Positions 10,817 to 35,029 of a stretch of DNA of 48,801 nt are shown piece by piece. The stretch comes from Promethearchaeota archaeon. GTDB taxonomy: Archaea; Asgardarchaeota; Lokiarchaeia; Sigyniarchaeales; SOKP01. The notes under the pieces are model-generated. The model worked only from the letters and a program-made list of their open reading frames with translations. It ran no database searches and was not told the DNA's origin. Made by a program: the position numbers and the translations under genes. How positions within the stretch are numbered: the stretch's first letter is position 1; the number at the start of each line of letters is the position of its first letter. The stretch covers positions 1-48,801 of the forward strand of contig JAHPZE010000031.1 in the NCBI GenBank assembly GCA_019058365.1, in the 5' to 3' direction.

Positions 10817-12436
10817 TTATATTCCTCCTCTTTGTTCTTTAAATAATGTAAACACTTTAAATAGTCTTTTAAAAACATTAGTTTTAATATCTCGAGAATT
10901 TGCATAATTTATACCAATAATATCGAATCTTTTTAGAAATTTGTTTAAGCGTTCTTGAAACGAGTTGAAATTTTTTTTGATTTTTGGTGTCCATCCAATC
11001 TCTGCAAAAGCGATCAAGCGTGGAAAAGTCTGCCATTCCAAACGTTTAATATTTGGTATATATTCAGACCATAAAGGTGCCTCTAAACCTAAAATTTGTT
11101 TATGATACATTTTCTCTAAATCTTTTGGAATTGGTTCAAATTTATATGCTAGTTTAAGTGGAGTAAATGTATAAGAATGGTCAAGATAAGTATATTTAAA
11201 ATTTGACATTATCAGTTCTCCACTTTTCTTCAAATACTCAAGAATATCCTTCTTCCCTCTAAGCCAATATTGGCAAATAGGTTTTTCCTCCAAATTCTTC
11301 TTTAAAGCATCATTCCATAATATAATTTTTTGCTCATGTTTACTTAAAAATCCTAATACCCTATTAGTAAAATATGTTTGAAGTTCTTTTTCACTTTCTA
11401 AACCTTCCTTTTTTATTCTTAATTGGCAATCTGGACATTCTCTCCATCTAACTTTAAGAACTTCATCACCTCCTATATGTACAATATTAGAGGGAAATAG
11501 ATCTATAATTTCTTTTAAAAGATTTTGAATAAATTCAAAAACCTCCTCCTTTCCTACACATAATACGTCCTTATGAATTCCCCAATGTGTAGAGACTCTA
11601 AAGGGGTATCCTTTACAACTTAAATTGGGAAAAGATGCTAAAACTGCCCTGGTGTGCCCAGGTAAGTCAATTTCGGGAATTATTTGAATAAATCGATCTT
11701 TGGCATAATTTATAATTTCTTTTATATCCTCTTGAGTATAATATCCTGAGTGAGGAATTCCATCCCGTTTTTTACTAAAAAAGCCACCAACTTGTGTTTC
11801 TTCCCTCTTAGAGCCGATTTCAATGAGTTTAGGATATTTCATTATTTCAATTCTCCACCCCTGATCATCTGTTAAGTGCCAATGAAATTTATTTAGTTTT
11901 AATAAAGCCATTAAATCAAGCATTTTTTTCACAATTTCTTTACCATGAAAGTGTCGAGCTTCATCAAGCATATATCCACGCCAAGAAAATCGTGGAAAAT
12001 CTTGCGATTTCAAACATGGAATCCGCCATTCTATACCTTCAACTCTAACATCATTCTCTATTTCGGGAGGAAGAAGCTGTCGTAGAGTTTGAATGCCATA
12101 AAAAATACCAGCTGGGTAAGGTGCGGTAATATTAATATCTTTAGAACTTACTTCTATACTATAACCTTCGAATCCTAATTTGTCTTTACGATCATTCAAT
12201 TTTAGATTTACTGTTGTACCATTAGTATTTTTTTCTTTTATGCTTTTTACAGCTAAATTAAAACCTGTAGCAGAGATAAGATGATTCTTTAAATAATTGC
12301 TCAGTTTGAATATTTCTTGATCCGAAAATATTATTGTTTCTTCCGTTAATATGAACTCTCCTGAAGAAAGATTTAACAATACAGGTTCAGGGATAATGTT
12401 AATATTTTGAATAATACTCACTCTCTTGATGAACAT
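10817..12436 (-). CDS. Beta-N-acetylhexosaminidase (GH20)
   Basis: DFPRFSWRGYMLDEARHF, HWHLTDDQGWR, PEIDLPGH, catalytic HIGGDE, WSE; no signal peptide. Confidence 0.95.
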   Translation of the reverse strand: MFIKRVSIIQNINIIPEPVLLNLSSGEFILTEETIIFSDQEIFKLSNYLKNHLISATGFNLAVKSIKEKNTNGTTVNLKLNDRKDKLGFEGYSIEVSSKDINITAPYPAGIFYGIQTLRQLLPPEIENDVRVEGIEWRIPCLKSQDFPRFSWRGYMLDEARHFHGKEIVKKMLDLMALLKLNKFHWHLTDDQGWRIEIMKYPKLIEIGSKREETQVGGFFSKKRDGIPHSGYYTQEDIKEIINYAKDRFIQIIPEIDLPGHTRAVLASFPNLSCKGYPFRVSTHWGIHKDVLCVGKEEVFEFIQNLLKEIIDLFPSNIVHIGGDEVLKVRWRECPDCQLRIKKEGLESEKELQTYFTNRVLGFLSKHEQKIILWNDALKKNLEEKPICQYWLRGKKDILEYLKKSGELIMSNFKYTYLDHSYTFTPLKLAYKFEPIPKDLEKMYHKQILGLEAPLWSEYIPNIKRLEWQTFPRLIAFAEIGWTPKIKKNFNSFQERLNKFLKRFDIIGINYANSRDIKTNVFKRLFKVFTLFKEQRGGI

Positions 12437-12524
12437 TAAATGCTTTAAAATTAAGAAATAAAAATGTTTATTAAAATTAATTAGAATAAGAAACTCAGAA
12501 TAAAAGTACTTTTATGTGAATATA

Positions 12525-14450
12525 ATGAAACTAAAAATACAAAATGAAAAATTTATTGACGATAAAGGCCGAACAGTATTATTGAGGGGTGTGAATCTGG
12601 GTGGAAGCTCAAAAGTCCCTTTTACTCCTAATGGAGCAACCTATATAAAAACGGATTTTAGTGATCATAAGAATGTTTCCTTTGTTGGTCGACCATTTCC
12701 GATAAAAGAAGCAGATGAACATTTTTCACGATTAAAGCACTGGGGTTTTAATTGTCTCAGGTTCTTAGTAACTTGGGAAGCAATTGAGCACAGCGGACCA
12801 AAAGAATATGATAAAGAATATTTAGATTATCTCGAGGAGATCTTAAAGATTGCTGAAAGTTATAAATTTTATACGTTCATAAATCCTCATCAAGATGTCT
12901 GGAGTAGAATGACTGGCGGGGATGGTGCACCTGGTTGGACTTTTGAAAAAGTTGGTTTAGACTTTACGAAATTTGATGAAGCAGAAGCAGCTTTAGTAAT
13001 GCAATATAGATATAATCCTAAAGTTCCAAAATCATATCCTCATCTACATTGGATATCAAACTCTTTAAGGTTTACTAATGGAACAATGTGGACTTTATTT
13101 TTTGGGGGAAGAGATTTCGCTCCCTCTTGCAAAATTGATGGAATTAATGCTCAAGAATATCTACAGAATCATTTTCTTGATGCAACAAAACAAGTGGCAT
13201 TAAGATTAACAGGAAATCCCTATATTATTGGATTCAATTCTATAAATGAACCTTACGAAGGGTGGATAGGAGAATTAGTCGATGGAAGTGATATCGAAGG
13301 TTTTTCAGAAGCTTTGGGATATGCTTTTACACCAATAGATGCGATGCTTACAGGATCTGGATATCCTAGAACAGTTCCATATAGAGAAATAAAAAGATTC
13401 GGTATAAAAAAAACAGGAGAAGATACAATGAATAAAAAGGGAATTTCATGTTGGTTAGAAGGACATGAAGATATTTGGAAAAAAGAAGGAGTGTGGGGTA
13501 TAAACAATGAAGGTGAACCAATTATTCTGAAAAATGACTATTTTAAGAATAAGGATGGAAAGAGTGTGAACTTTTTTCATGAATATTTAGCACCATTTTT
13601 CACTAATTATACAAAAATAATTAGAGATGTAATTCCCGATAGTATTCTCTTTTTTGAAGGTCCTGCGGAAAAATTGAAGACATCTGAGAAAATAGAATTT
13701 ACAGTACCAACGAATGTTGTGAATGCAGGACATTGGTATGATGATGCTACTTTAGGTACAAGAAGACCTATGATAAAAATTAACTTTAACACTTATACTA
13801 ATAAACCTGTTATAGGAAAAAAGAATGTTAAAAAAATGTTCATAAACCAATTAAGAATTATTAAGAATATCTCGAGTAAGATTCATGGGGGTATTCCCAC
13901 CTTAATTGGAGAATTTGGATTGATTTTTAATCTTAATGATGGAGAAGCGTATCAAAAATTCGAGACTGAACCGGAAATTGCTTGGAAAAGTCATATAAAA
14001 TTGCTTACTATGTACTATGATGCCCTAGATGCCAACCTACTCCATTCAACTCAATGGAATTATACTGCTGATAACACTAACCAATGGGGTGATCAATGGA
14101 ATCTTGAAGATCTTTCGATTTATAGTAAAGACCAACAATTAAATCCTTACGATATTAATAGTGGCGGAAGAGCAATTGAAGGATTTTGTCGTCCACATTT
14201 TATTCATTGCTCTGGTATACCATTAAAAATGGAGTTTATTTATAAAGAAAAAACTTTTTATTTCGAATTTGATGCTGATTCTTCAATAAGAGCGCCCACA
14301 ATTATTTATGTACCAAATATTCAATATCCAAAGGGGTATGAGATCAAAATTTCTGAGGGAGACATTGCCAAAAAAGATTCTGAACAACTTGTCTTTATAA
14401 GAACTAATAAAGATGGTGTTCATATTATTAAGATTACTAAAACTCTCTAA
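12525..14450 (+). CDS. GH5 endoglycoceramidase-related glycosidase (EGCrP / steryl- or ceramide-beta-glucosidase-like), copy A
   Basis: GVNLGGSSKVP, SFVGRPF, TWEAIEH, HQDVWSR, acid/base NEP, nucleophile IGEFG, WNY, C-terminal beta domain. Confidence 0.88.
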   Translation: MKLKIQNEKFIDDKGRTVLLRGVNLGGSSKVPFTPNGATYIKTDFSDHKNVSFVGRPFPIKEADEHFSRLKHWGFNCLRFLVTWEAIEHSGPKEYDKEYLDYLEEILKIAESYKFYTFINPHQDVWSRMTGGDGAPGWTFEKVGLDFTKFDEAEAALVMQYRYNPKVPKSYPHLHWISNSLRFTNGTMWTLFFGGRDFAPSCKIDGINAQEYLQNHFLDATKQVALRLTGNPYIIGFNSINEPYEGWIGELVDGSDIEGFSEALGYAFTPIDAMLTGSGYPRTVPYREIKRFGIKKTGEDTMNKKGISCWLEGHEDIWKKEGVWGINNEGEPIILKNDYFKNKDGKSVNFFHEYLAPFFTNYTKIIRDVIPDSILFFEGPAEKLKTSEKIEFTVPTNVVNAGHWYDDATLGTRRPMIKINFNTYTNKPVIGKKNVKKMFINQLRIIKNISSKIHGGIPTLIGEFGLIFNLNDGEAYQKFETEPEIAWKSHIKLLTMYYDALDANLLHSTQWNYTADNTNQWGDQWNLEDLSIYSKDQQLNPYDINSGGRAIEGFCRPHFIHCSGIPLKMEFIYKEKTFYFEFDADSSIRAPTIIYVPNIQYPKGYEIKISEGDIAKKDSEQLVFIRTNKDGVHIIKITKTL

Positions 14451-14584
14451 AATCCTTTTTTTAATTTGAATTGTATATAAATTTAAATAAAAAGCATAAA
14501 TAATTCAAGATATCATATAATTATATTATAAAATTTGAAAAAAACTCATTAATTTTGGAACAAAATCTTTAAAGAAGGAATCAA

Positions 14585-15622
14585 ATGATTGGAAAGGTCG
14601 TTACTTTTGGAGAAATAATGTTAAGACTTTCACCACCTAATTTTAAACGTTTTATCCAAACTCGTTCTTTTGACTTAATATATGGTGGTGGAGAAGCTAA
14701 TGTTGCTGTTTCATTAGCTAATTATGGAATTCCTGTAGATTATATAACGAAATTACCAAATAATGAAATCGGTGAAGCTTGTATTCAATTTCTAAGACAG
14801 TTCGGTGTAAATACAAATAATATTGTCAGAGGAGGAGATAGAATAGGAATATACTTTCTCGAGATGGGATCCTCTATTCGACCAAGTAAGGTTATTTATG
14901 ATAGAGCACATTCAGCTATATCTGAAGCTAATCCTATCGATTTTGATTGGAATAAAGTTTTTGATGGTGCATCCTGGTTTCATTGGACAGGGATTACACC
15001 CGCAATTTCACAGAATTTAGCAAATATTTGTCTTGAAGCTGTGAGAATCGCAAAAAAAAAAACCATTACAATATCTTGCGATTTAAATTATCGTAGCCAA
15101 TTATGGAAATATGGAAAAAAACCAAATGAAGTTATACCTGACTTACTAAAATACTCCGATATTGCAATTGGGAATGAAGAAGATGCTGAAAAAGTTCTGG
15201 ATATTAAAGCTCCCAATACAGATATAACTTCAGGAAAACTTGAAGCTGAGAATTATAGATATGTAGTAGAAGAAATAGTTAGACAATACCCTAACCTAAA
15301 AAAGGTAGCAATTACTCTAAGAGGATCACTTTCTGCGAGCCATAATACATGGTCAGCAATTCTTTATGATGGAACTAATTTATATATTGGTCCTCAATAT
15401 GAAATAACCCCTATCGTAGATAGAGTAGGTAGCGGGGATTCTTTTATGGGAGGATTAATCTATGGACTACTCACATATAAAGATAATCTCCAAATTGCAC
15501 TCAATTTTGCTGTAGCTGCCTCCTGTTTAAAGCACACAATATTGGGAGATTTTAATTTAGTTTCTATTGATGAGGTTGTAAAATTAATGGGCGGTGATGC
15601 ATCTGGCCGCGTTTCAAGATAA
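14585..15622 (+). CDS. kdgK: 2-keto-3-deoxygluconate kinase (PfkB family)
   Basis: FGEIMLRLSP, GGGEANVA, DLNYR, GNEED, DRVGSGDSF, GRVSR. Confidence 0.9.
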   Translation: MIGKVVTFGEIMLRLSPPNFKRFIQTRSFDLIYGGGEANVAVSLANYGIPVDYITKLPNNEIGEACIQFLRQFGVNTNNIVRGGDRIGIYFLEMGSSIRPSKVIYDRAHSAISEANPIDFDWNKVFDGASWFHWTGITPAISQNLANICLEAVRIAKKKTITISCDLNYRSQLWKYGKKPNEVIPDLLKYSDIAIGNEEDAEKVLDIKAPNTDITSGKLEAENYRYVVEEIVRQYPNLKKVAITLRGSLSASHNTWSAILYDGTNLYIGPQYEITPIVDRVGSGDSFMGGLIYGLLTYKDNLQIALNFAVAASCLKHTILGDFNLVSIDEVVKLMGGDASGRVSR

Positions 15623-15647
15623 TTAATTTAAGAGGTTGATAATAATA

Positions 15648-16454
15648 ATGGAAAAAAATACAAAAATTATAATAACTGCTACAACGGCTAATTCTTGGAT
15701 TTATCCTGAAGTTAAAAATTGGGCTCAAACAACTGAAGCATTAATTGAAGATATTGTACAATGTTATGAAGCTGGTGCTGCGGTTGCTCATGTTCATCTG
15801 CCTCGGGGAGAAGAAGTTGAAATTGTTAAACGAATAAGAGAAAGGTGTGATGTTATTATACAAGCAGGGATGTCAAGTGAATCAATCCCTAAAAGAAAAG
15901 GTGATTTTGATGCCAAACCAGATATGATGTCAGTTATATTAAATCACCATTCAGAACATTTTGCTGAAATTACTGTTGATGTATTGCATCCACTTACAGA
16001 ACTTGAAGAATATTGTATAAAATGTAAAGAAGCGAATATCAGACCAGAATGGGAAGTTTGGCAACATGGTTCATATTGGAACTTAAATTATTTAATAGAA
16101 AAAGGATTGTTGGACTGGGCTAAACCACATATCTTGACTTTATTTTTTGATTGGCCCGGTGGAACATGGAGTCCTGCTAATTATGAAGAATACATGCATA
16201 GGAGAAGATACTTACCTCCTAATAGCGTTCATACAGTTAGTGTAATGGGTGAGGAACAAATGAGTCTCTTGGTTTTTGTCCTTACACACGGTGGAAACAT
16301 TCGAGTGGGAACTGAAGATTGTCCATTTATTAAAAAAGGAGTAGTAGCAAAAAATAACGCTGAAATTGTTAAAAATTATGTGAGTATCTGTAAGCATGTA
16401 AATCGAGAAGTAGCTGATCCATCTGAAGCAAGAAAAATGTTAGGAATAGAATAA
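15648..16454 (+). CDS. Beta-keto acid cleavage enzyme (BKACE/DUF849 family)
   Basis: EAGAAVAHVH Zn motif, PEWEV, GGNIRVGTED, NAEIV, EARKMLG. Confidence 0.88.
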   Translation: MEKNTKIIITATTANSWIYPEVKNWAQTTEALIEDIVQCYEAGAAVAHVHLPRGEEVEIVKRIRERCDVIIQAGMSSESIPKRKGDFDAKPDMMSVILNHHSEHFAEITVDVLHPLTELEEYCIKCKEANIRPEWEVWQHGSYWNLNYLIEKGLLDWAKPHILTLFFDWPGGTWSPANYEEYMHRRRYLPPNSVHTVSVMGEEQMSLLVFVLTHGGNIRVGTEDCPFIKKGVVAKNNAEIVKNYVSICKHVNREVADPSEARKMLGIE

Positions 16455-16624
16455 AAAAGTTGTAATTCTCCCTCTATTTTAAAAATTTAGATTTAAATTA
16501 TGATACGTGAACTAATATCGATTTCTAGAAAAGTTCAATAGCTTTATATATATTTAATACAAATGTTTTATCATCATAATTTCTTCTTATGTTAAACAAA
16601 AGCTAAAAGAAGTATTGAGAAAAA

Positions 16625-17515
16625 TTGAATGGTTCTTTTTATTTAATAGGTGTTTTTCTAGCTATATTATCTGGAAGTATAAATAATGTAGGTTTAGTAT
16701 TACAAAAAAAGGTAGTTAATGAAGTACCCCCTGAAGCAAAATTTTTTAGGAGTTTAGTGAAAAATCCTATTTGGATAACAGGAATATTAATGGAGGTAGC
16801 AATAGGTTCAGTTTTTTTTATGATTGCTCAAATTTACATCGGTCCTGCGTTAATACCTGGTTTGATGGCATTCGGTTTAATTTTTCTCGCTATTGGATCT
16901 GTTAAAATTGTAGGTGAAACATTAAAAAAAGAAGAAATTATTGGAATAATTTTAATGATCACAGCAATCTTTTCATTAGGTCTTTCTGAATTGAGTGTAG
17001 ATATCACTGGTATAAATATATTAGCGCTTAATCTTGTGCTTAACATGACTATTTTTACGATTGTTTTATTTTTAGGTACATTCATATGTGAGATTTTGCA
17101 AAGAAAAATTGAAAAATTAAAAGGAATTTTATTAGCAATATCATCAGGATTCCAATTTTCTCTAACTAATTTTTGGATTGCACCATTAATGGCAGTTATC
17201 GCCCATGTTTTTGGAGGAAATGCTACTTTAGGCGAATTATTCTTATTTATAGCATGTGCAATAATTTTAATAGCAGCAAGTATCATAGGGACTATGAAAA
17301 TCCAGCAATCATTCCAAGTAGCTAATGCTAGTCGAATGATTCCCATTCAACAAGTACCTATACAAATAACACCAATAATAGTATACTTTTTTGTTTTCAC
17401 ATTGATGCCTCCAACAATCCTACCGATAATATATGTAATTATTGGTGTTTCTTTAATCCTATTAAGTTCGTTTCTGTTGGCAAAAAGACAAGCCCAATTA
17501 GAAGTTATAAAGTAA
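16625..17515 (+). CDS. DMT-superfamily transporter, NIPA-like, copy A
   Basis: About nine TM helices; LAILSG...LQKK, W..G, GPALI.GL, GETL pattern. Confidence 0.75.
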   Translation: MNGSFYLIGVFLAILSGSINNVGLVLQKKVVNEVPPEAKFFRSLVKNPIWITGILMEVAIGSVFFMIAQIYIGPALIPGLMAFGLIFLAIGSVKIVGETLKKEEIIGIILMITAIFSLGLSELSVDITGINILALNLVLNMTIFTIVLFLGTFICEILQRKIEKLKGILLAISSGFQFSLTNFWIAPLMAVIAHVFGGNATLGELFLFIACAIILIAASIIGTMKIQQSFQVANASRMIPIQQVPIQITPIIVYFFVFTLMPPTILPIIYVIIGVSLILLSSFLLAKRQAQLEVIK

Positions 17516-17525
17516 GGTTGGAAAA

Positions 17526-18344
17526 ATGATAAAAATCTTATTTTTTCAACCACATCCGGACGATTTAGAGTTAAATTGTGGTCATCTCATTCATTATCTT
17601 GCAACAAAAAGTAAAGAGAAGTATCTTATTAAGATTGCCTCTACTACAAAAGGTGAATATGGCCTTCCTGGTGCTCAATATGATAAATTTAAAGGTGATT
17701 TTCTTGCAAAAGTTAGAACTCGAGAATTATACAATGCTTTAAGCATTCATGGAATACCTCCAGAAAATGTTCACTTTTTTGGGTGTGTTGATGGTTTAGT
17801 AGAATTTAATAAAGAATTTGTAAATAAGATTGCAGAGTATTTAAATACTGAAAAGCCTGATATAATTTTCGCACCAGAAGCAATTTACACCTCTTATTAC
17901 CATAAAGATCATGTTAATACGGGTAAAGCTATATATTACTGTATTCATAATAACTTAATTGACTTTACTCCAATACTTTATTTTTACTCGACGCTAAGTC
18001 CTAATTATTTCTTCGGGTTTGCAAAGGAAGAATTTTCTTTAATCGATCAATTACTTGCTTGTCATAAAACTCAATTTTGGTTGATAAATTATGTAACATT
18101 GACATATAAACCAAAAACGATACTAGCAGGAAGGAAGTTAAAAGGTTGGAAATATGCTGAGAAATACAGAAGAATATATTTTCATAAAGAAAATAAAAGT
18201 AAGAATAATCCGTCTTTAATTGTTAAAATGCTAAGCCATTGGTTTTCAAGCATGCCCTTTTTTAAAGCTAAATACCCACAAGATGTATTAGAAGAGCTTA
18301 AAAAAAAAAAGAAAAATCTGAATATTCAAGGAGAATATGAATAA
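17526..18344 (+). CDS. PIG-L/LmbE family N-deacetylase, copy A
   Basis: PHPDDLE, TKGE.G, R.RE, HKDH, HKTQ. Confidence 0.9.
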   Translation: MIKILFFQPHPDDLELNCGHLIHYLATKSKEKYLIKIASTTKGEYGLPGAQYDKFKGDFLAKVRTRELYNALSIHGIPPENVHFFGCVDGLVEFNKEFVNKIAEYLNTEKPDIIFAPEAIYTSYYHKDHVNTGKAIYYCIHNNLIDFTPILYFYSTLSPNYFFGFAKEEFSLIDQLLACHKTQFWLINYVTLTYKPKTILAGRKLKGWKYAEKYRRIYFHKENKSKNNPSLIVKMLSHWFSSMPFFKAKYPQDVLEELKKKKKNLNIQGEYE

Positions 18345-18471
18345 TGCTTTTAGTGTAAAATATGTATAATAAAACTATATAAAGAACAAAAACAAAATAA
18401 TCTCAATATATAATAAAGAATTAATTAAAAAATTTGAAATTATAATTACTAAAAGAATCGAGGTGTATTTT

Positions 18472-18813
18472 TTGGCAACTATTGAAGAAGTTAAAGAAGC
18501 TTTAAATAAATGGGTGAAAGTATTAGACGATCCAGAGCTTGCGGATGAATTTGAAGGATTCAATAAAACCATGCAATTTGAATTTTCAGACTTAAATTAT
18601 AAAGTAAAAATGATTTTTGAAAATAAAAAAGTAAGATTAGAGGAAGGTTTTGACGAAAATGCTGAAATGGGTTTAGAAGTTAATTCTGATCTTTTTGTAG
18701 GTATTGCTACCGGCGAAGTTGATCCAATGGAAGCGTTTATGGAAGGAGAACTTAAAACTAAGGGTGATATGAACTCATTGCAGAGATTAGAAGTCTTCAT
18801 GGACATTGAATAG
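18472..18813 (+). CDS. SCP2 sterol/lipid-binding domain protein
   Basis: DLFVGIATGEVDPMEAFMEGELKTKGD; likely TTG start 6 nt after GAGGTG. Confidence 0.88.
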   Translation: MATIEEVKEALNKWVKVLDDPELADEFEGFNKTMQFEFSDLNYKVKMIFENKKVRLEEGFDENAEMGLEVNSDLFVGIATGEVDPMEAFMEGELKTKGDMNSLQRLEVFMDIE

Positions 18814-18992
18814 CGAAGTTTAGTAAAGATTTTTTTATTTTTTTCAAATACTATTTTTTTTGTTTAGGAAAATGAGAAGATTTAAAGGAGATAATGTTCA
18901 TTAATTTAAAAATTAAAAATTTAGGATTATTGAAAATAAGTATTTTCATAAGAAATATTATAATATAAAAAATTATTCTGGCTTGAGATGAA

Positions 18993-20117: not shown

Positions 20118-20181
20118 AAAAAAACCTAAAAGCAATAAATTGGATTAATTAATTATTGAAAAATTATTGGAGGATAATTAA

Positions 20182-24170: not shown

Positions 24171-24208
24171 TAGCTAAACAAGTAAAATAATTTAAAAAAT
24201 CAAGAGTG

Positions 24209-24904
24209 ATGAATATGGTTAAACATATAGGAATTGTTGCTTGCAGTGCAGAAGGAGCTGCGCTTTGTTATAAAACTATTTGTATAGAAGCTCAAGAAAA
24301 GTTGTTTAAATATAGACATCCTGAAATAACAATGCATACACCACCTCTTTCTGATTATATGCAACACATATGGAATGGAAATTGGGAAGAAGTTGCAGAA
24401 TTAATGCTCAACTCTGCAAGAATTGTAGCAAAAGCAGGAGCGGAATTTGCAATTTGCCCCGATAATACACTGCATCAAGCATATAATTTAATGATATCTA
24501 AATCTCCTATCCCTTGGTTACATATCGCTGAAGTGGTAGGAAAAGAAGCAAAACAAAAAAAATTTAAGCATTTAGGAATATTAGGAACAAAGTATCTTAT
24601 GAACTCTCCAGTTTATCCCGATGCTCTTAAGAAATTCAATATAACATGTGAAATTCCAGAGGTTTCTGATCAGGATATAGTTGATAAAGTTATTTTTGAA
24701 GAATTAGTGAATGGTGTATTTAAAGAGGAATCCAGAAAAATTTTTAATAAAATAATTCAAAAATTAGCTAAAAAGAACTGTGATGCTGTTGTTCTAGGGT
24801 GTACAGAGATACCTTTACTTATAGACCCCAATGATTGTCCCTTACCTATTTTAGATTCTACTAGATTACTAGCAAGAGCAGCAATTAAAAAAGCTTTAGA
24901 ATAA
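24209..24904 (+). CDS. Asp/Glu/amino-acid racemase family protein
   Basis: ICPDNTLH, LGILGT, LGCTEIP. Confidence 0.88.
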   Translation: MNMVKHIGIVACSAEGAALCYKTICIEAQEKLFKYRHPEITMHTPPLSDYMQHIWNGNWEEVAELMLNSARIVAKAGAEFAICPDNTLHQAYNLMISKSPIPWLHIAEVVGKEAKQKKFKHLGILGTKYLMNSPVYPDALKKFNITCEIPEVSDQDIVDKVIFEELVNGVFKEESRKIFNKIIQKLAKKNCDAVVLGCTEIPLLIDPNDCPLPILDSTRLLARAAIKKALE

Positions 24905-25714: not shown

Positions 25715-25824
25715 TTTAATACACCTGTATTTTACTAAAATTGTATTGATAAATTAATTTTACTAAGAAATTTTGATAAAAGTGAAGAACAAAATTATTT
25801 AATTTTTTCTTATTTTTCTTATTT

Positions 25825-27000: not shown

Positions 27001-28122
27001 TTACTTTTCAAAAATTTCTTTATCTAAACTTGAGAGCCTTTCACAACCGGTACTAGTTATTCTATAACAGTCTTCGATACCTACTAATCCCTGACCTCTA
27101 ACATTTTGCCATGCTTCTACATCTAATACCATGTTTTCCTTTATAGGTCCATCATAGTTATGCCCTGGGCCAAAAACATGTGTTTCTTCAGTTTCTAATC
27201 CTATACTGTGACCAATTATACTACAGAATCCCTTTCCTAGCTGTTTGTAATAATTATAAGCATTATTATATAGTTCTTTTGGATCAGCTCCCGGTTTAAG
27301 ATTATCTAAGCAAAATTCTTGAACTTTTATCATATTTTCCATTGCTTTCACACCTTTTTCAGGAGCCTGTCCAACAACAGCATCTCGACTAACATCTGAA
27401 ACATAACCCTTCCAAACCGCACCAAAATCAAATCTAATCATGTCACCCTGATTCACAATGGTTCCAACACCGGGTGCTTCTGGATCTGAATCCCCAATAT
27501 TCATAGTTAAATGATCCCAACCTTCAGCTCCTTCTTTAACGATTGTACTTCGTGCAATTTGAAGTAACTCATTATCTGATTTTCCTTCTTTTAAAGATTC
27601 AATGCAATTCAGAATAGCCTTTTCAGCAATTTGAGTTGACTTTCTAATTCTGTTTATTTCTTCCTCTGATTTAATTAATCGCATTTCTAAAAATGCATTA
27701 TCTCCATCAACAAAAAAAGCATCTGGAAATTCTTTTCGGAGAAATTCTGATTGATATCTAGGCATTAGAGTCTCAATGCCAATTTTTTTATTTTTTAAAC
27801 CAAAATCCTCAAGTTTTTCTCCTAATAATTTCAAGCCACCATTGGGAGAGCCAACACGTTCATAATTCTTTACCCACGAAAACTTTTCAACACTGTCATA
27901 CAAGGCCCATACTAATAAAAACACTTCTCCATCATTTGTTATTATTGAAAAACTAGGATATTGATTATACAAAACAAATAGTATTGGATTAGGGGCAACA
28001 TGAAGTGTAGGAATCCCAGTTGTATAAAAAACATTAACTGGCGTAGTAGCAATTAAAGCATCAAGATTAAACATTTCGAGAAGTTCAATCGCTCTTTTTT
28101 TATTATATCCTATTGGTTCCAT
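27001..28122 (-). CDS. M24-fold hydrolase, copy B
   Basis: Paralog of 18993..20117 (MEPIG, PTLHVAPNPIL, GAEGWDHLTMN, GHSIGLE). Confidence 0.88.
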   Translation of the reverse strand: MEPIGYNKKRAIELLEMFNLDALIATTPVNVFYTTGIPTLHVAPNPILFVLYNQYPSFSIITNDGEVFLLVWALYDSVEKFSWVKNYERVGSPNGGLKLLGEKLEDFGLKNKKIGIETLMPRYQSEFLRKEFPDAFFVDGDNAFLEMRLIKSEEEINRIRKSTQIAEKAILNCIESLKEGKSDNELLQIARSTIVKEGAEGWDHLTMNIGDSDPEAPGVGTIVNQGDMIRFDFGAVWKGYVSDVSRDAVVGQAPEKGVKAMENMIKVQEFCLDNLKPGADPKELYNNAYNYYKQLGKGFCSIIGHSIGLETEETHVFGPGHNYDGPIKENMVLDVEAWQNVRGQGLVGIEDCYRITSTGCERLSSLDKEIFEK

Positions 28123-28196: not shown

Positions 28197-28985
28197 TTAA
28201 TTCTCTTTAAGCTTTAAAAGGATTTCTTGAGGATATTTTGCTTTAGTCCAAGGAAGATTAGAAAAAAAATGGGTAAAAATTCGCACGATAAGTGTTGGTT
28301 TATTCTTCTGTAAATTTTTCTCATTGAAATATACACGTCGATATGGTTCAGCATATTTCCATCCATGGAGTTTTCTTCCTGCGAACCTGTTAAATAGTCG
28401 GTATGGGAGCATAGTATACCTTAAAAGCCATTGTTGTGTTTTATGGCACTCAATCAATTTATATGTTAACGTTTTGATATCCTTTTTTTTAAAGCCAAAA
28501 AAGAAATTTGGATGCATAGAAGTATAGAAATAAAGGATTGGGGTGAAGTTAATTAATTTCTTATAGATGATATAAAATATTGCTCTTCCCGTGTTTATAT
28601 GATCCATATGATAATACCACGAATAGATTGCTTCTGGAACAATAATTATATTTGGTCTTTCTTTTTTAAGATAATCAGCAACCCTATTTACAAAATCTTT
28701 ATTGAAAGGTATAAATCCGTCAATATATCCAAAGAAATCTATATTATCAGGGGATATCCCATGAATTTTCTCTGCGTTAAATAATTCTCGCGTTCTAATT
28801 TTTGCCAACAATTCTCCTTTAAATTTATCATATTGAGGTCCTGGAAGCCCAAATTCTCCTTTTGTGATTGATGCTATTTTAATAATGTAATTTTTTTTAG
28901 TTTTAGTAGCAAGATAATGCATTAAATGTCCGCACTTGTGTTCTAAATCATCAGGATGAGCTTGAAAGAATATGATTTTGGTCAT
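28197..28985 (-). CDS. PIG-L/LmbE family N-deacetylase, copy B
   Basis: AHPDDLE, HMDH; paralog of 17526..18344. Confidence 0.9.
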   Translation of the reverse strand: MTKIIFFQAHPDDLEHKCGHLMHYLATKTKKNYIIKIASITKGEFGLPGPQYDKFKGELLAKIRTRELFNAEKIHGISPDNIDFFGYIDGFIPFNKDFVNRVADYLKKERPNIIIVPEAIYSWYYHMDHINTGRAIFYIIYKKLINFTPILYFYTSMHPNFFFGFKKKDIKTLTYKLIECHKTQQWLLRYTMLPYRLFNRFAGRKLHGWKYAEPYRRVYFNEKNLQKNKPTLIVRIFTHFFSNLPWTKAKYPQEILLKLKEN

Positions 28986-29008: not shown

Positions 29009-29899
29009 TTATTTTATCTCTTCCAATAGAGCTGATCTTTTTCCTAATAGGAAAGAACTGATTATAATTAGACTTAATCCAATAATTAAATAGTAAATAG
29101 AAAAGATACTCGGTGGTGTTAATAGAAATATTAGAAAATATATTACGATTGGGGCAATTAATGTAGGAACTTGTTGTATAGGAACCAAGTTACTTGCTTG
29201 GCCAACTGTAAATGACTTTTGAATTGTCATGACCCCTAAGACATTAGATAAAATTAGAATAATGCAAGAAATAATAAATATGAGTAATTCTCCTAAATCA
29301 AAAGTACCACTTAATATCTTAGCTATAACTCCTATAAGTGGGCTTACCCAAAAATTTGAGAGTACAAATAATAATCCAGATAATGTTGCTAATAAAATCC
29401 CCTTGAATCTTTTACTTTCCCGCTGTAAGATATAACATATAAAGGAGAATAATATAACAACTAATGTAAAAATAATAATCCTAATAAGAAATGAGATCTC
29501 CACTAAATTTGTATGTGCAATATCAATTGATAATTCACTTATTCCTAATAGAAAAAATGCTAATATCATTAGAAAAATTCCTATAAATTCTGCTTTATTT
29601 AAAGTTTCTCCCACAATCTTTAAAGAACCTATTGCTAATACAATTAACCCTGAAGCCATAAATCCAGGAATTAGTGCAGGACCAATGAATAATTGGGCTA
29701 TCATGTAAAAAATAGCTCCTAATCCGTATTGTAAAATAAGACCACTTAGCCATAATCTTTTTTTAACTAAGCTTCTAAAAAATTTTGCTTCATCGGGGAG
29801 AGCATTTATTACCTTCTTTTGGAAAACAGTGCCAAGATTATTTGATAATCCAGATGAAATTGCTAATGAAACACCTAACCAATAGAAATTAACAGCCAT
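29009..29899 (-). CDS. DMT-superfamily transporter, NIPA-like, copy B
   Basis: Paralog of 16625..17515, same length (296 aa). Confidence 0.75.
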   Translation of the reverse strand: MAVNFYWLGVSLAISSGLSNNLGTVFQKKVINALPDEAKFFRSLVKKRLWLSGLILQYGLGAIFYMIAQLFIGPALIPGFMASGLIVLAIGSLKIVGETLNKAEFIGIFLMILAFFLLGISELSIDIAHTNLVEISFLIRIIIFTLVVILFSFICYILQRESKRFKGILLATLSGLLFVLSNFWVSPLIGVIAKILSGTFDLGELLIFIISCIILILSNVLGVMTIQKSFTVGQASNLVPIQQVPTLIAPIVIYFLIFLLTPPSIFSIYYLIIGLSLIIISSFLLGKRSALLEEIK

Positions 29900-30038: not shown

Positions 30039-31535
30039 ATGACTTTGAATAAAATAAAAATTCAGGTTATTTTTATTGGTAAACCACAATGGGAAGCTGG
30101 ATGGCCCTATTTAGGTTATGACAACTTTAAGCTAATAGATGAGATTAAGATACGTTTAATTAAGAAGTTTCCAATTGTTGCATTTAACTGGGGAACGATG
30201 ATTACTTCATATGATAAAGTTTTAATCGATAATATTAAAGAAAATATACTAAAAGCAGATGGGATGATTATCTTTACAATAGGTCATTATGGAGATCCTG
30301 GAATAGTTCAAGCGGGAATTGAATTTATCGAATGTGAAAAACCAGTTATTCTTGCTAATTTTATTTATGGAGGAGATCATACATTCACCAAAATCTATTC
30401 GAATATTAAAGATAAAAATTATCAAGTATTTCCATTATCTTCACAAAAGATTGAAGATTTTGAAAAAGCAATTGAAATAATGATTAGTTTGCTACGTATA
30501 AGGGGAACGAGAGTTTTGGTGTATGCAAGTGATGTAATAAAAATGAATTGGGATGTAATATTAGGTCTATTTAATCCAGAACGTAAAAAAATATTAAAAG
30601 ATCATCCAGAATTTCTTGAACAAGTTGGAAAAATGAGTGGTGATAAAGAATTTGAATTTTTTACAGATACAGTTGGTGAAGATCAAGCACATCAATGGAG
30701 AATGGATGAAATAAAATATAAAGAAAATTTGAAGGAAATATTTGGTATCGATATGATAAGAGGAGATCCAGATGAGATTCTGGAGTACTATTCAAATGCA
30801 AATGAGGGAGAAGCTAAAAAGGTTGCCGATAAATGGACTAGCAATGCATTAAAAGTAGATCCTTCTGAAAAGACAATTCTGAATTCTGCAAAATTATATA
30901 TCGCTTTTAAAAAAATATTGGAAGATAAAGGTGTTGATATTTTTACTCCTGATTGTGGAACCTTCTTATTGACGGGATTATTACCTGCTTATCCGTGTAT
31001 GGCTTTTTTAGAATTAAGTAATGAAGGGAAATATGGTATATGTGAATCTGATATGGATTCAACTGTGAGTTTCCTTTTTGGTCTCTATTTAACAAATCGT
31101 CAGGGTTTTGTATCTAACCATACTTTTGATATAGCAAATCAACAAATTACATATATGCACTGTGTTGCGCCAAATAAACTTTATGGAGTTAATGGTCCAT
31201 CAACTCCTTATGAAATTGTATTTCATGGTGAAACCCATTATTTAGGTGCCTCTCCTTGTGTTAAATTTCCAATCGGTGAAAATGTTACAACTATAAAAAT
31301 AAGTGTTTTTAAGAAGAAAATATCAATTAGACAAGGAAGAATTATTGATAATGTCGTTGATGAAAAAGGATGCGTATCAAAAATGTTAGTAAAGAGCAAT
31401 GTAGAAAAAATTATGAAAAATTATGATTGGGAATCCTTCGGATGGCATAGAGTTACTTTTATTGGAGATTGGAAAGAGATTTTCATAATTGGAGCCAAAA
31501 TTTTAGGATTAGAAATTATCGAAGATGATCAATAA
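30039..31535 (+). CDS. L-fucose/L-arabinose isomerase-like sugar isomerase
   Basis: PC.AF..L..EG....CESD, YMHC, C-terminal GWHRV pattern. Confidence 0.65.
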   Translation: MTLNKIKIQVIFIGKPQWEAGWPYLGYDNFKLIDEIKIRLIKKFPIVAFNWGTMITSYDKVLIDNIKENILKADGMIIFTIGHYGDPGIVQAGIEFIECEKPVILANFIYGGDHTFTKIYSNIKDKNYQVFPLSSQKIEDFEKAIEIMISLLRIRGTRVLVYASDVIKMNWDVILGLFNPERKKILKDHPEFLEQVGKMSGDKEFEFFTDTVGEDQAHQWRMDEIKYKENLKEIFGIDMIRGDPDEILEYYSNANEGEAKKVADKWTSNALKVDPSEKTILNSAKLYIAFKKILEDKGVDIFTPDCGTFLLTGLLPAYPCMAFLELSNEGKYGICESDMDSTVSFLFGLYLTNRQGFVSNHTFDIANQQITYMHCVAPNKLYGVNGPSTPYEIVFHGETHYLGASPCVKFPIGENVTTIKISVFKKKISIRQGRIIDNVVDEKGCVSKMLVKSNVEKIMKNYDWESFGWHRVTFIGDWKEIFIIGAKILGLEIIEDDQ

Positions 31536-31646: not shown

Positions 31647-33023
31647 ATTAGTGAAATTAGAAAGAATAACAATGATAAAGTACATTCACTTAGAGGTCGT
31701 CTTTTATATTCTTTAGGAGCTATACCATCAGCACTTCCTTACAATATGGTTTCTGCTTTTTTTGTATTCTTTTATGTTACAGTTAGACATCTTGATTTTA
31801 CTCTTTCAGGTTGGATATGGGTAATATATGGAATTTGGAATGCAATAAATGATCCTATTATAGGCTTTTATATGGATAAAAAAAAAACTAAGTGGGGTCG
31901 TCGTGTTCCATATATAGTAATTGGAACGATTCCTTTCACGATTGGATTTATATTTCTCTGGTGGGTACCTTATTCAAGTTCAGAACAAATTTTTATATTT
32001 CTGCATGCCCTTCTTATGCTATTTCTATTCGATCTTGGATTTACGCTATGTATGACGGGGTGGTCAGCTCTATATACTGAAATGTATGAAGAACAAGGAG
32101 AAAGAGCAACTGTAGTAGCAATAAAAGATACTATCGCCTTTATTTCATCATTTATTGGAATTATAATTCCTCCAATGATTGCAAAAGCAATTGGATGGGA
32201 ATTGACAGGTCTTATATTGGGGCTCACAATTCCAGTAACAATGTTACTTTCTCTTCGCGGATCAAAAGAAAGAGAGGAATATCAAATTGACGAACCATTA
32301 CCAGTATTTACCGCTATTAAAGAGACTCTAAAAAATAAACCATTTATAATAATTACTTTAACTTACACTTTGCTTGACTTTTGTTTTGGATTAACTATAA
32401 TGGTTCTTCCATTATATGCCAAATTTATTCTTGGAGTAGATGAAGGATTAGTAGGTGTTGCTGCTGCAGGAGTAGCAATAGGAATCCTTATAAGCATACC
32501 TTTTTGGAGGTATATATATGCTAAAAAGGGACCAAAATACGGACTACTCCTTGCAATGATTATATTTTCTTTAGGAATATGGCCATTGTTTCTTATAAAT
32601 GATTTTATTATACTAATCGTTGTTACAATTTTTCCTGGATTCGGAGCTGCCGGTATGCTTATGACTGAACCTGCTATTAGTACAGCAATAGATTATGATG
32701 AATTAAAAACTAATAAAAGACGAGAAGCGTCATACAATGGAATTTTAACATTAATTGCTAGATTATCATTGGTTTTTTCAGGAATAACTTTAATAATTGT
32801 AGGACTTTTAACAGGTTTTGACTCAAACGCAGAGACCCAATCACCAACCGCACTTTTAGGTTTAAGAACATTAGTAGGATTCGTGCCTCTTCTTGGAGCG
32901 TTGTTAGGATTGTTGGTTTTTGTATTCTTCCCGATTAATCATGAAATTTTCATTGAGCAACAACAACAATTAAAAATTTTACATCAAGAGAGAATAGAGA
33001 GATTAGAAAAAGAAAAGATTTAA
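31647..33023 (+). CDS. MFS glycoside-pentoside-hexuronide (GPH) transporter; probable ATT start
   Basis: NAINDPIIG..D..KTKWGRR.PY, DYDELKT.KRRE; TM1 (RLLYSLGAIP) lies in the open frame upstream of ATG 31746; SD GAGGG. Confidence 0.88.
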   Translation: MSEIRKNNNDKVHSLRGRLLYSLGAIPSALPYNMVSAFFVFFYVTVRHLDFTLSGWIWVIYGIWNAINDPIIGFYMDKKKTKWGRRVPYIVIGTIPFTIGFIFLWWVPYSSSEQIFIFLHALLMLFLFDLGFTLCMTGWSALYTEMYEEQGERATVVAIKDTIAFISSFIGIIIPPMIAKAIGWELTGLILGLTIPVTMLLSLRGSKEREEYQIDEPLPVFTAIKETLKNKPFIIITLTYTLLDFCFGLTIMVLPLYAKFILGVDEGLVGVAAAGVAIGILISIPFWRYIYAKKGPKYGLLLAMIIFSLGIWPLFLINDFIILIVVTIFPGFGAAGMLMTEPAISTAIDYDELKTNKRREASYNGILTLIARLSLVFSGITLIIVGLLTGFDSNAETQSPTALLGLRTLVGFVPLLGALLGLLVFVFFPINHEIFIEQQQQLKILHQERIERLEKEKI

Positions 33024-33094: not shown

Positions 33095-33937
33095 ATGGAA
33101 TGTGATCTTGAAAATATAAAAATTTATTATGAAATTTATGGCGAAGGACATCCAATTCTTATGATTCATGGATTTTCACCGGATCACCGTCTAATGAAGG
33201 GATGTATGGAACCTATTTTTCAAAAAAGAGATTATTATAGTCGTATTTATTTTGATTTACCAGGAATGGGGAAAACTGCAGGACCAGAATGGTTAAAAAA
33301 TTCAGATCAAATGCTCAATATTGTTTTAGAATTTATTGATAAGATTATTCCTAAGCAAAAATTCATAATTGCAAGTGAATCTTATGGATGTTATTTAGCA
33401 AGAGGTCTTCTTTTAAAAAGATCTAAATTTATCGATGGTGTCTTATTTCTTTGTCCTCTTATAATACCTCAACAAAAAAGACGAGATTTACCTAAAGATT
33501 TTAACATTTTAATAAAGGATTCTGAATTAATTTCTAGTTTAAGTCCTTCTGATGCTGAAGAATTAGAAAATTCTTTAGTGATCCAGAGTAGAGATATTTG
33601 GGAGAGATATCGAGATGAAGTCCTTTCTGGTTTGAAAATTGCTGATCATAATTTTCTGGAGAAAATATTTCCAGCTAATTATGAATTTTCTTTCGAAATA
33701 GATCACCTTATACAATTATATGATAAACCAACATTATTTCTTTTGGGGAGGCAAGATGTATCCGTTGGATATCGTGATGCTTGGAGAATTATTGAAAATT
33801 ATCCAAGCGCTACTTTTGCTATTCTTGATCAAGCAGGTCATAATCTACAAATTGAAAAAGCAAATTTGTTTAACTCTTTAGTTAACGATTGGTTAGATAG
33901 AGTGGAATATCACATTTCTTTAAAGAATAGAGAATGA
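33095..33937 (+). CDS. Alpha/beta hydrolase
   Basis: HGF, DLPGMG, SESYG nucleophile elbow, GRQD, AGH. Confidence 0.9.
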   Translation: MECDLENIKIYYEIYGEGHPILMIHGFSPDHRLMKGCMEPIFQKRDYYSRIYFDLPGMGKTAGPEWLKNSDQMLNIVLEFIDKIIPKQKFIIASESYGCYLARGLLLKRSKFIDGVLFLCPLIIPQQKRRDLPKDFNILIKDSELISSLSPSDAEELENSLVIQSRDIWERYRDEVLSGLKIADHNFLEKIFPANYEFSFEIDHLIQLYDKPTLFLLGRQDVSVGYRDAWRIIENYPSATFAILDQAGHNLQIEKANLFNSLVNDWLDRVEYHISLKNRE

Positions 33938-35029
33938 AGATTTATTTCTTTCAATTTTTTTTTTAATTTCTTTAGGTTCTTCTCTTGGTAATCTTTCATT
34001 AACAGGTAAGAGTAGTTTGAATTTTTTATGCGGTTCTGTTTGATACCAGTAAGCTGTAGAAGAAAAGTCATCTGAACGTTGATTTGCATGACCATGTTCA
34101 ATTTTAACTTTAATATTTTTATGAAAATAAATTGGGTCTTCAATATGATATCGATAATAAGAAATTTTTCCACTCCAACGCTCTCCACCTGGTAAGGGGA
34201 TTCCAAAATATGGTGAACAATAATATTGCGTTGGACACCATGCTCCACAGAAATAATCTTCTGTACCAGTTCCATGAAGAATTATTTCTCCATCATCAAT
34301 TTCAATATAATCATCGCCTTCACCAGGCCAGTTAAACTTATCAGTTTCAAATAAATTATGAATATCTAAATGGCATCCAACATAGTGACCCTCACCTTTA
34401 GCATCTAGTATTAGATAATCGTCCTCATGAGTACGATTTTTTTTACTAAACATTTCTGCCTTCCAATTCATCCGTTTTAATTTGTCATAATCTTGACCAT
34501 TACAAGGATTTATTCTATTCCACGAAGAATGGAACCTTCCATAACAAGAGTCGATTTCAGGAAGTTCTTCATAATCAATGTAATAATAGCAGGTTAACTC
34601 CCAATCATTGCATTCATTTTCAATTTCAATTCTAGCTTTTTTGGAAAATGGCATTGGAAAAAAGCAGTTAAATCCTTTTCCATCTTCTGGACCCATAGAT
34701 AAGGGCAAACTCCAAAAATTTACGCTCTTACTATGACCAACTCCAAAAAAATCACCTATAGGACATTCTACTGATGGATTTTTTTCATCGTCCCACCACA
34801 TTCGAATTATTACTTTTCTCAAGTAATGAAGATCTTTTGATGCGAGAGTCATCCAAATATGTTTTATAATTCCCGCACATGATAAATTACATAGTTCAAA
34901 TCTTTCTTTAATGTTAATAATTTTAAAATCAGCATTAGCCCCTGTTTGGTCATAACTAGAGATCCTCTTTCTTTTAACATTCTTTTTAATTGTTGGTAAA
35001 TTCATTAAAGAACTAAATCCAAATTCCAT
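33920..35029 (-). CDS. DUF2961 / GH172 glycoside hydrolase
   Basis: SSYD.TG.N.D, GIIKHIWMT, PIGDFFG, PMPF, WPGEGD, GTGTEDYF, YRYH..DP, EHGH. Confidence 0.9.
   Translation of the reverse strand: MEFGFSSLMNLPTIKKNVKRKRISSYDQTGANADFKIINIKERFELCNLSCAGIIKHIWMTLASKDLHYLRKVIIRMWWDDEKNPSVECPIGDFFGVGHSKSVNFWSLPLSMGPEDGKGFNCFFPMPFSKKARIEIENECNDWELTCYYYIDYEELPEIDSCYGRFHSSWNRINPCNGQDYDKLKRMNWKAEMFSKKNRTHEDDYLILDAKGEGHYVGCHLDIHNLFETDKFNWPGEGDDYIEIDDGEIILHGTGTEDYFCGAWCPTQYYCSPYFGIPLPGGERWSGKISYYRYHIEDPIYFHKNIKVKIEHGHANQRSDDFSSTAYWYQTEPHKKFKLLLPVNERLPREEPKEIKKKIERNKSSFSIL

Follow-up and report, generated by a model that had tools for sequence, protein, structure and literature searches.

A candidate glycoconjugate-salvage island around a conserved glucosidase gene module in a Promethearchaeota archaeon

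Contig JAHPZE010000031.1 of a Promethearchaeota archaeon carries, within a 48,801-nt window (the whole stretch of DNA that was analysed), an island of 21 genes at positions 10817-35029, including two enzymes of glycoside hydrolase family 5 (GH5). About nine of these genes form a conserved unit, so far found only in Asgard genomes. It is about an even call, in our judgement, that the region is a cytoplasmic glycoconjugate-salvage island grown round this older module for amphipathic beta-glucosides; the module itself most likely strips glucose from hydrophobic glycosides inside the cell. A first-pass annotation had taken the 24 kb as a single undescribed pathway, which does not hold: only about nine of the 21 genes are conserved and the rest are genus or family additions, so that the 24 kb is an accreted island.

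The GH5 Enzymes

By sequence, active-site alignment and predicted fold, both GH5s are close structural and active-site copies of the fungal sterylglucosidases, which bears out the EGCrP2/Sgl1-type assignment made in the first-pass annotation. GH5a and GH5b, the sole two copies in the genome, are 64% identical, and each has the C-terminal beta-sandwich Glyco_hydro_5_C (PF18564, 54 bits in both). Their best solved relative is SglA from Aspergillus (8exd; E 4.6e-101 and 1.4e-100 for the two GH5s); Cryptococcus Sgl1 is matched at E 9e-93 and the endoglycoceramidases far more weakly, at E ~1e-10. In Sgl1, the catalytic residues are Glu270 and Glu520, the glucose is bound by Lys47, His142, Asp144, Asn269, Tyr453, Trp570 and Glu587, and Trp584 acts as a cap admitting one sugar and no more (PMC8497620). 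When aligned, both archaeal proteins keep the equivalents of K47, H142, D144, N269/E270, Y453, E520, W570, W584 and E587, all of them invariant or at least 90% conserved among 40 homologues. N244-E245-P246 and E466 align to N269/E270 and E520, corresponding to the GH5 NEP acid/base and nucleophile Glu, with E245 invariant and E466 at least 90% conserved in the same 40 sequences.

The AlphaFold2 model of GH5a (pLDDT 92.9) superposes over its whole chain on Sgl1 (7lpo/7lpp/7lpq) with a TMq of 0.90-0.92 and on SglA with a TM of 0.89, compared to 0.52-0.56 on the endoglycoceramidases (EGCases) I and II. This whole-chain superposition shows that the enlarged cap, which in Sgl1 forms the buried aglycone pocket, is retained in the model. 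GH5b is the copy in the canonical place, beside the Gfo/Idh/MocA dehydrogenase copy a (GFOa), and its orthologue in G113 is 78% identical and has the same position. Regarding the aglycone, GH5_12 has been described as a subfamily of fungal and bacterial clades whose members include glucosylceramidases and a flavonoid beta-glucosidase from yeast (PMC3526467). A hydrophobic aglycone is expected, not necessarily a lipid, although a lipid is plausible for the island GH5s.

Conservation and Growth of the Island

The distribution was followed in 201 Asgard genomes, with synteny taken from tblastn maps (f1, f7 and the like denote families, g1 and g4 genera). GH5 occurs in 51 of the 201 genomes (f1 23/40, f12 15/19, f7 6/43, f14 3/7), and the cluster-type PIG-L deacetylase in 27, only in families f1, f2 and f7; GH5 is also present in 26 of these 27. 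Both genes lie <=10 kb apart on one contig in 18 genomes, most of the remaining ones being cut by contig ends, as in G071, where one part of the cluster lies at the end of C7 and the other at the end of C85. The contiguous core consists of a DMT transporter, PIG-L, an SCP2 lipid carrier, an M24 metallohydrolase, a Gfo/Idh/MocA dehydrogenase and GH5, and at least 18 of the sampled Asgard genomes, belonging to two families, have it. It was found in genus g1 (the present genome, G177, G192, G132 and G150), in g4 (G071, G162, G113, G174, G099, G077 and G104), in family f7 (G158, G116, G155 and G179) and in four more Promethearchaeota metagenome-assembled genomes (MAGs). The f7 core orthologues are only 47-61% identical to those of the present genome, yet the genes stay together, and across many genomes the core set is syntenic at 50-90% protein identity, which indicates that the clustering is not due to chance. 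The first-pass annotation had called for a look at neighbourhood conservation across Asgard genomes, and GH5, SCP2, PIG-L, Gfo/Idh/MocA, M24 and DMT do occur together in two families, contrary to the lack of co-occurrence that it had named as refuting its reading.

Two short-chain dehydrogenases/reductases (SDRa and SDRb) and a cleavage enzyme for beta-keto acids (BKACE) join the core in both f1 and f7, as seen in the G158 order BKACE-SDRa-SDRb-M24-SCP2-DMT-PIG-L-GFO-GH5, and the conserved unit is therefore of about nine genes. Public-record homologues of the island GH5 carry Lokiarchaeota or Promethearchaeota labels, and literature searches found no description of the Asgard module.

The island occupies a fixed chromosomal slot. 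Between Ras2/HEAT/Amidohydro_2 and UPF0047/ECH/PorBA, the g4 genomes have the 5-6-gene core only, some of them with GH172 next to GH5 or with an S12 hydrolase of Pab87 type immediately upstream of it, while the same slot holds 21 genes in the present genus (g1). Part of this growth is duplication, as the DMT, PIG-L, M24 and GFO genes each have a second copy, 54-63% identical and in inverted orientation. GH5a and GH5b are both placed among the f1 members of a single, strongly supported Asgard clade, so that their duplication came after the f1/f7 split.

Such variability in gene order and content, together with the occurrence of GH5 alone in other lineages, could reflect a mosaic without a shared substrate at a recombination-prone slot, where only pairs such as SDR-BKACE or GH20-GH5 would be functionally linked. 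We regard this as improbable, because the membership of the six-gene core, if not always its order, is kept across families with orthologues only 50-60% identical, which would scarcely be expected unless co-inheritance or co-expression were selected for.

Wider Relatives of GH5

The phylogeny (FastTree) comprised 145 GH5 homologues, most rows having no taxon label, and the fungal clade is presumed from its long sequences. The Asgard GH5s linked to the cluster group as a single clade, nested in a mixed one of bacterial, archaeal and stramenopile sequences, and the long, presumably fungal sequences belong to the other major clade, so that the Asgard clade is not their sister. A special Asgard-to-eukaryote descent of GH5 is not indicated by this tree. 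The nearest non-Asgard homologues are 41-51% identical and include Theionarchaea, Chloroflexota and a stramenopile. No core partner genes were found beside the nearest non-Asgard GH5s inspected (Chloroflexi, Theionarchaea and a bacterial sugar locus), the bacterial one being accompanied by ABC permeases, GH42 and GH31. In family f12, the lone GH5 has MFS transporters, FabH-like, acyl-CoA-synthetase-like and alpha/beta-hydrolase genes as neighbours.

The absence of signal peptides noted in the first-pass annotation was confirmed for GH20, GH5a, GH5b and GH172, where homology to cytoplasmic or solved relatives begins at residues 1-13 and the N-terminus lacks any hydrophobic segment. With all enzymes cytoplasmic, the module could serve the turnover or quality control of the cell's own membrane glycolipids, with no scavenging, as EGCrP1 and Sgl1 do in fungi. 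The fungal homologues indeed act on endogenous glycolipids (PMC8497620, PMC12061408), and one Asgard GH5 homologue adjoins a UbiA prenyltransferase gene. Nevertheless, this alternative appears unlikely, since transporters (DMT, and GPH in the genus) and the catabolic BKACE and 2-keto-3-deoxygluconate (KDG)-type kinase are attached. Moreover, a housekeeping role would be expected to be more universal than a GH5 present in 51/201 genomes and a module present in 27/201, and no squalene/oxidosqualene cyclase was found in the genome. More broadly, a search of the genome for a sterol or hopanoid cyclase gave only weak partial repeat matches, so any steryl glucoside would need to come from outside the cell; a GT21 search of the genome gave one generic match.

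At the window end, a 210-aa open frame (48178-48417, minus strand) has a 29-bit partial match to the squalene-hopene cyclase C-terminal repeat; this repeat is probably prenyltransferase-like, not a cyclase.

Layout of the Island

The window is AT-rich (GC 0.25-0.36), and its composition is unbroken at the island. A contaminant, or a horizontally acquired island of foreign composition, is ruled out by an island GC of 0.28-0.34, as in the flanks. This uniformity and the flanking Asgard hallmark genes, two Ras-family GTPases and a HEAT protein, indicate that the island is native. Genes are densely packed, every intergenic gap being <=210 bp, and the eight genes from GH5a to GFOa (12516-21318) are co-directional and operon-like. 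All the gene families named in the first-pass annotation are present, three assignments (the two transporters and the isomerase) having weaker support. Family calls are those of Pfam at E<0.001, and the genes are as follows:

10817-12436 (-): GH20 beta-N-acetylhexosaminidase, cytoplasmic (PF00728, 363 bits)
12516-14450 (+): GH5a, GH5 + GH5_C, predicted Sgl1/EGCrP2-like retaining exo-beta-glucosidase (Pfam)
14585-15622 (+): PfkB sugar-acid kinase, KDG-kinase-like (Pfam PfkB)
15636-16454 (+): BKACE, DUF849, TIM barrel (PF05853, 152 bits)
16625-17515 (+): probable DMT-superfamily NIPA/EamA-like transporter, copy a (hydrophobic segments, fold matches)
17526-18344 (+): PIG-L/LmbE zinc deacetylase, copy a (PF02585, 72 bits)
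18463-18813 (+): stand-alone SCP2 lipid-carrier domain protein (PF02036, 54 bits, cut-off 21)
18993-20117 (+): M24B metallohydrolase, copy a, Creatinase_N + pita-bread (Pfam)
20182-21318 (+): GFOa, Gfo/Idh/MocA NAD(P) sugar or inositol dehydrogenase, copy a (Pfam)
21346-23277 (-): GH5b, GH5 + GH5_C, paralogue of GH5a (Pfam)
23421-24170 (+): SDRa (Pfam; generic SDR by NCBIfam)
24206-24904 (+): Asp/Glu-type amino-acid racemase (Pfam; TIGR00035)
24938-25573 (-) as listed, to 25720 with the upstream extension: SDRb (Pfam)
25825-26964 (+): Gfo/Idh/MocA dehydrogenase, copy b (Pfam)
27001-28122 (-): M24B metallohydrolase, copy b (Pfam)
28197-28985 (-): PIG-L deacetylase, copy b (PF02585, 67 bits)
29009-29899 (-): probable DMT-superfamily transporter, copy b (hydrophobic segments, orthologue matches)
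30039-31535 (+): putative FucI/AraA-like sugar isomerase, weakly assigned (Atlas features, SftI model)
31746-33023 (+): GPH/MFS_2 glycoside:cation symporter (MFS_2, 205 bits; TIGR00792, 151 bits)
33095-33937 (+): alpha/beta-hydrolase of esterase, lipase or aminopeptidase fold (Pfam)
33920-35029 (-): GH172, DUF2961 (PF11175, 268 bits)

The minus-strand open reading frame (ORF) 16834-17346 was rejected as a gene, as it sits within a transporter gene. The alpha/beta-hydrolase and GH172 genes are convergent, their 3' ends overlapping by 18 bp (33920-33937). On the left flank, conserved in g1 and g4 genomes, Ras/Rab-like small GTPases are encoded at 194-748 and 3422-3952, with neighbours at 2452-3417 and 4302-6398 having no Pfam match; a 302-aa membrane protein (9671-10579) has no match in Pfam or NCBIfam.

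Partners of GH5 in the Core

Both transporters have 296 residues and about ten hydrophobic segments, and the copies a and b are 57% identical. Neither matches Pfam (E<0.001) or NCBIfam, and their Atlas features are those of NIPA/EamA; among 16 orthologues, three match Mg_trans_NIPA and five match EamA. The six best VIA fold matches of the AlphaFold2 model (pLDDT 86) are all DMT transporters, including LicB (Z 10.3), YddG (Z 8.1), PfCRT (Z 7.9) and Vrg4 (Z 7.8), Z values below 13 not being decisive for helical proteins. Foldseek with the same model gave only uninformative ABC-exporter rows (TM ~0.2).

The PIG-L copies are 61% identical and have the zinc motifs HPDD (residues 10-13) and HxDH (126-129). 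Among solved structures they come closest to the archaeal diacetylchitobiose deacetylase (E 6e-9), and they score below the BshB equivalog cut-offs. A logic of the Dac/GlmA kind, deacetylation followed by cleavage of glucosamine, was set aside, because the sugar site of GH5 is of glucose type.

The SCP2 gene is syntenic in nearly all core clusters. The island SCP2 also matches Alkyl_sulf_C (E 5e-7). Outside the island, at 38646-42602 (minus strand), there is an alkyl-sulfatase-like protein with an MBL fold and Alkyl_sulf_dimr, without the SCP2-like C-terminal domain; it is encoded beside an esterase gene and another MFS_2 transporter gene.

The Gfo/Idh/MocA copies are 54% identical, and the PDB neighbours of GFOa are sugar C1/C3 dehydrogenases. 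The scores of both copies against IolG (145 and 163 bits, cut-off 355) place them at family level alone. GFOa matches the UDP-GlcNAc 3-dehydrogenase model with 105 bits, below cut-off, as is the match of Gfo/Idh/MocA to the xylose dehydrogenase Gfo6 model.

M24 copy a matches Pyrococcus prolidase (E 5e-25), and the nearest kin of M24 are archaeal Xaa-Pro dipeptidases. Alignment of copy b with the prolidase of Pyrococcus horikoshii places all five dinuclear-metal ligands (D, D, H, E, E) in register, and these positions do not vary between the two copies, which are 63% identical. The PepQ equivalog is matched with 86 bits (cut-off 630), and copy a resembles the ectoine hydrolase DoeA_2 over its full length (E 3e-19). 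Readings as an ectoine (DoeA/DoeB-like), N-acetyl-beta-lysine, inositol or mycothiol-like pathway were rejected, as the required partner genes are absent. Judging from their motifs, M24, PIG-L (HPDD/HxDH) and GH20 (GGDE) look like active enzymes.

Lineage-Specific Additions

GH20 diverges in orientation from GH5a across a 79-bp gap, matches PDB 8pxu at E 1.4e-113 and has its catalytic GGDE at residues 322-325. In the synteny maps it was seen only in g1-type genomes (G000, which is the present genome, G177, G132 and L071). The racemase scores 136 bits against TIGR00035, above the 93-bit cut-off, and was seen only in g1 and in unassigned Promethearchaeota MAGs. The 498-aa isomerase-like protein has no Pfam match at E<0.001; its Atlas features are FucI/AraA-like, and it matches the sulfoquinovose isomerase (SftI) model with 24 bits (E 1.4e-5). 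The alpha/beta-hydrolase weakly matches EstV lipase and proline iminopeptidase, and is again found next to cassette b in G150 and L078. GH172 matches alphaFFase1 (7v1v) at E 9e-71 and directly adjoins GH5 in G104 and L072. The racemase, isomerase, GPH symporter, alpha/beta-hydrolase, GH172 and second cassette were all seen only within the family.

Other lineages have peptidases in the cluster. In G099 (L034:17592-18989), and in the equivalent gaps of G077, G109 and G057, there is an S12 beta-lactamase-fold hydrolase with a Pab87 octamerisation domain, ending a few bases ahead of the GH5 start. In the f7 genome G155 (L027:6435-8483), a prolyl oligopeptidase lies inside the cluster as two ORFs, one for the propeller and the other for the catalytic domain, due either to a frameshift or to a real split.

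These neighbours bear on an alternative in which the module would salvage glycopeptides or bacterial cell-wall debris (muropeptide-, lipoteichoic-acid- or lipopeptide-derived), the main work being done by the amidases and peptidases (PIG-L, M24 and the S12 or S9 enzymes of relatives), the racemase and GH20, with GH5 only freeing an anchor, a hydrophobic peptide or a lipid, of its glucose. The dipeptidase kinship of M24 with its intact metal sites, a racemase above its curated cut-off and the presence of GH20 would fit, as would the Pab87-type S12 peptidase directly upstream of GH5 in g4 and the prolyl oligopeptidase of G155, with Asparaginase_2 and M32 nearby. However, the island has no N-acetylmuramic acid (MurNAc) etherase, amidase_2/3 or NagA-type gene, the peptidase partners vary by lineage where SCP2 and GH5 are constant, and the GH5 sugar site fits glucose, not N-acetylhexosamine (HexNAc). 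We consider it rather unlikely, but it deserves weight: peptidases and a racemase recur around the core, and the substrates may be peptide-bearing debris of the envelope and not simple lipids.

The BKACE Branch

The best equivalog of the BKACE is Kce, with 127 bits and below the cut-off of 382. It is linked to the core in f1 and f7, and to SDRa, which is adjacent to it in G155, G158, G132 and L071. SDRb is near the 3-hydroxybutyrate dehydrogenase subfamily (233 bits, cut-off 258). Its true start is ~49 codons upstream of the listed TTG, with the Rossmann N-terminus GAASGIG encoded in 25574-25720 (minus strand). The probable start is an ATT where the congener G177 has ATG, and G192 also has no Met; either a rare start codon is used or the gene is slightly damaged. 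The PfkB protein scores 531 bits against the kinase half of the fusion model of 2-keto-4-hydroxyglutarate (KHG)/2-keto-3-deoxy-6-phosphogluconate (KDPG) aldolase and kinase, and 216 bits against the haloarchaeal KDG/KDGal kinase model (cut-off 440). In G155, an aldose 1-epimerase gene follows BKACE, which, along with the KDG-type kinase beside it, suggests that the branch acts on the sugar moiety and not on the aglycone.

It had been proposed in the first-pass annotation that BKACE, next to a KDG-type kinase, might stand in for a KDPG aldolase, none being encoded in the window. The PfkB and BKACE genes are indeed 13 bp apart and recur as a pair in g1 and g4, and in the deoxyribonate pathway a BKACE cleaves a sugar acid, 2-deoxy-3-keto-ribonate (PMC6365646). 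This proposal is nonetheless highly improbable, as the genome encodes a KDPG/KHG aldolase on contig C14 (PF01081, E 1.5e-70) and in f7 no PfkB accompanies the core-linked BKACE. In addition, KDG and KDPG are alpha-keto-3-deoxy acids, not beta-keto acids of the kind BKACE cleaves, so the rationale given for it fails.

The C14 aldolase locus (L069:3858-12488) also has an MFS_2 transporter, a PFL-like 860-aa glycyl-radical enzyme and a radical-SAM activase, and is adjoined by another PIG-L and a SIR2 gene, forming a catabolic cluster separate from the island. ILVD/EDD and enolase-superfamily dehydratases are encoded elsewhere in the genome. In both g1 and g4, an Amidohydro_2 protein (7285-8055, minus strand) is consistently found on the left flank of the module. 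Sugar lactonases are among the members of this family and, by pure inference, the protein could supply the lactonase not found in the island.

Proposed Function

In the salvage reading, partitioning into the membrane, or else the DMT or GPH transporters, would bring an amphipathic glucoside to the cytoplasmic side, and SCP2 would hold or solubilise its hydrophobic part. The capped GH5 would then remove a single beta-glucose, with Glu245 as acid/base, Glu466 as nucleophile and Trp528 blocking longer glycans, while PIG-L and M24 would hydrolyse N-acetyl or other amide decorations. The released aldose may be oxidised by Gfo/Idh/MocA, and SDR and BKACE may oxidise and then cleave a beta-hydroxy/beta-keto acid with acetyl-CoA, giving acetoacetate, as in the oxidative deoxyribonate pathway; the closeness of SDRb to 3-hydroxybutyrate dehydrogenases would fit acetoacetate as a product. 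To this the genus would have added a duplicated cassette and GH20 to trim terminal HexNAc, and further a KDG-type kinase, racemase, FucI-like isomerase, GPH symporter, esterase-fold hydrolase and GH172. The likely substrates would be envelope or detrital glycoconjugates: steryl, ceramide, diacylglycerol, archaeol or other hydrophobic beta-glucosides. A narrower proposal can be held only tentatively, namely a dedicated Asgard cytoplasmic pathway in which SCP2 would hand membrane-type glycolipids (steryl, ceramide, diacylglycerol, archaeol or glycerol dialkyl glycerol tetraether (GDGT) beta-glucosides) to an Sgl1-type glucosidase, the parts being eaten or recycled.

Several observations weigh against the salvage reading. 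GH5 occurs without the partners in f12 (15/19 genomes), Theionarchaea and Chloroflexi, so the partners are not required for its basic function, and M24 is absent from the cluster in G109 and G057 (g4). The island SCP2 is one of eight loci of an eight-member family in the genome. Flavonoid and aryl glucosides are further substrates of GH5_12 enzymes (PMC3526467). Several of the lineage-specific neighbours are peptidases (S12 Pab87-like, S9, M32 and Asparaginase_2), and these, with the racemase, point to peptide-containing rather than purely lipid substrates. Moreover, no lactonase or gluconate dehydratase was found in the island, and a glucose-derived substrate for BKACE is chemically unclear. 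All substrates named for these enzymes are predicted ones.

On the conservative reading, the finding is a conserved, uncharacterised nine-gene unit, and the island shows how one genus duplicated and accreted genes to build up 24 kb at one fixed place in the chromosome. Glycolipids dominate the intact polar lipids of marine sediments, and a module that did act on lipid glucosides would provide a genetic handle on their use or recycling by sediment Asgard archaea. In that case it would also point to metabolism aided by a soluble lipid carrier in the lineage nearest to eukaryotes. If the tentative glycolipid pathway were true, it would be the first archaeal route of glycolipid catabolism or recycling, and would imply that proteins mediate intracellular lipid handling in the prokaryotes most closely related to eukaryotes. 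Any claim on eukaryogenesis is tempered by the presence of GH5 in Chloroflexi, Theionarchaea and stramenopiles, and by its not being sister to the fungal enzymes.

Comparison with Known Systems

The fungal GH5_12 enzymes (Sgl1/EGCrP2, 7LPO; SglA, 8EXD; yeast Egh1; EGCrP1) have the same two-domain architecture with an enlarged cap (TM 0.91), the same Glu pair, glucose-binding residues and single-sugar Trp cap, and are likewise intracellular, without a signal peptide. They differ in sequence (~30-33% structure-based identity) and length, with ~800 residues compared to 644 in the archaeal proteins. Besides, the fungal genes are not found in such a cluster, and no sterol or hopanoid cyclase was detected in the Asgard host. 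Meanwhile, the Rhodococcus endoglycoceramidases I/II (GH5_28/29) share the GH5 barrel with a C-terminal beta-sandwich and act on glycolipids; however, they are secreted, their active site is open to accommodate oligosaccharide head groups, and the TM is only 0.52-0.56.

In the chitin pathway of Thermococcales (Dac, then GlmA), an archaeal PIG-L gene also stands beside a Glu/Glu retaining exo-glycosidase. However, the similarity to Dac is weak (E 6e-9), the island glycosidase is a glucose-type GH5 and not a GH35 glucosaminidase, and the island has SCP2 and no chitinase.

The oxidative deoxyribose/deoxyribonate pathway of Pseudomonas and Paraburkholderia resembles the island in its pairing of SDR and BKACE and in having an aldose dehydrogenase, the role predicted for Gfo/Idh/MocA in the island. 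There, the aldose dehydrogenase acts upstream, and the aldonate is converted to a beta-keto acid that is cleaved with acetyl-CoA into an acyl-CoA and acetoacetate (PMC6365646). The island has neither lactonase nor glycerate kinase, and its upstream dehydrogenase is a Gfo/Idh/MocA protein, not a molybdoenzyme. The likeness is one of gene pairing; the island BKACE is nearest to the Kce model and scores below its cut-off.

Finally, bacterial sugar-utilisation loci and islands resembling polysaccharide utilisation loci similarly pack together glycosidases, transporters and downstream sugar enzymes. The Asgard island differs from them in having no binding protein, regulator or secreted enzyme, and carries instead a lipid carrier and two amidohydrolases.

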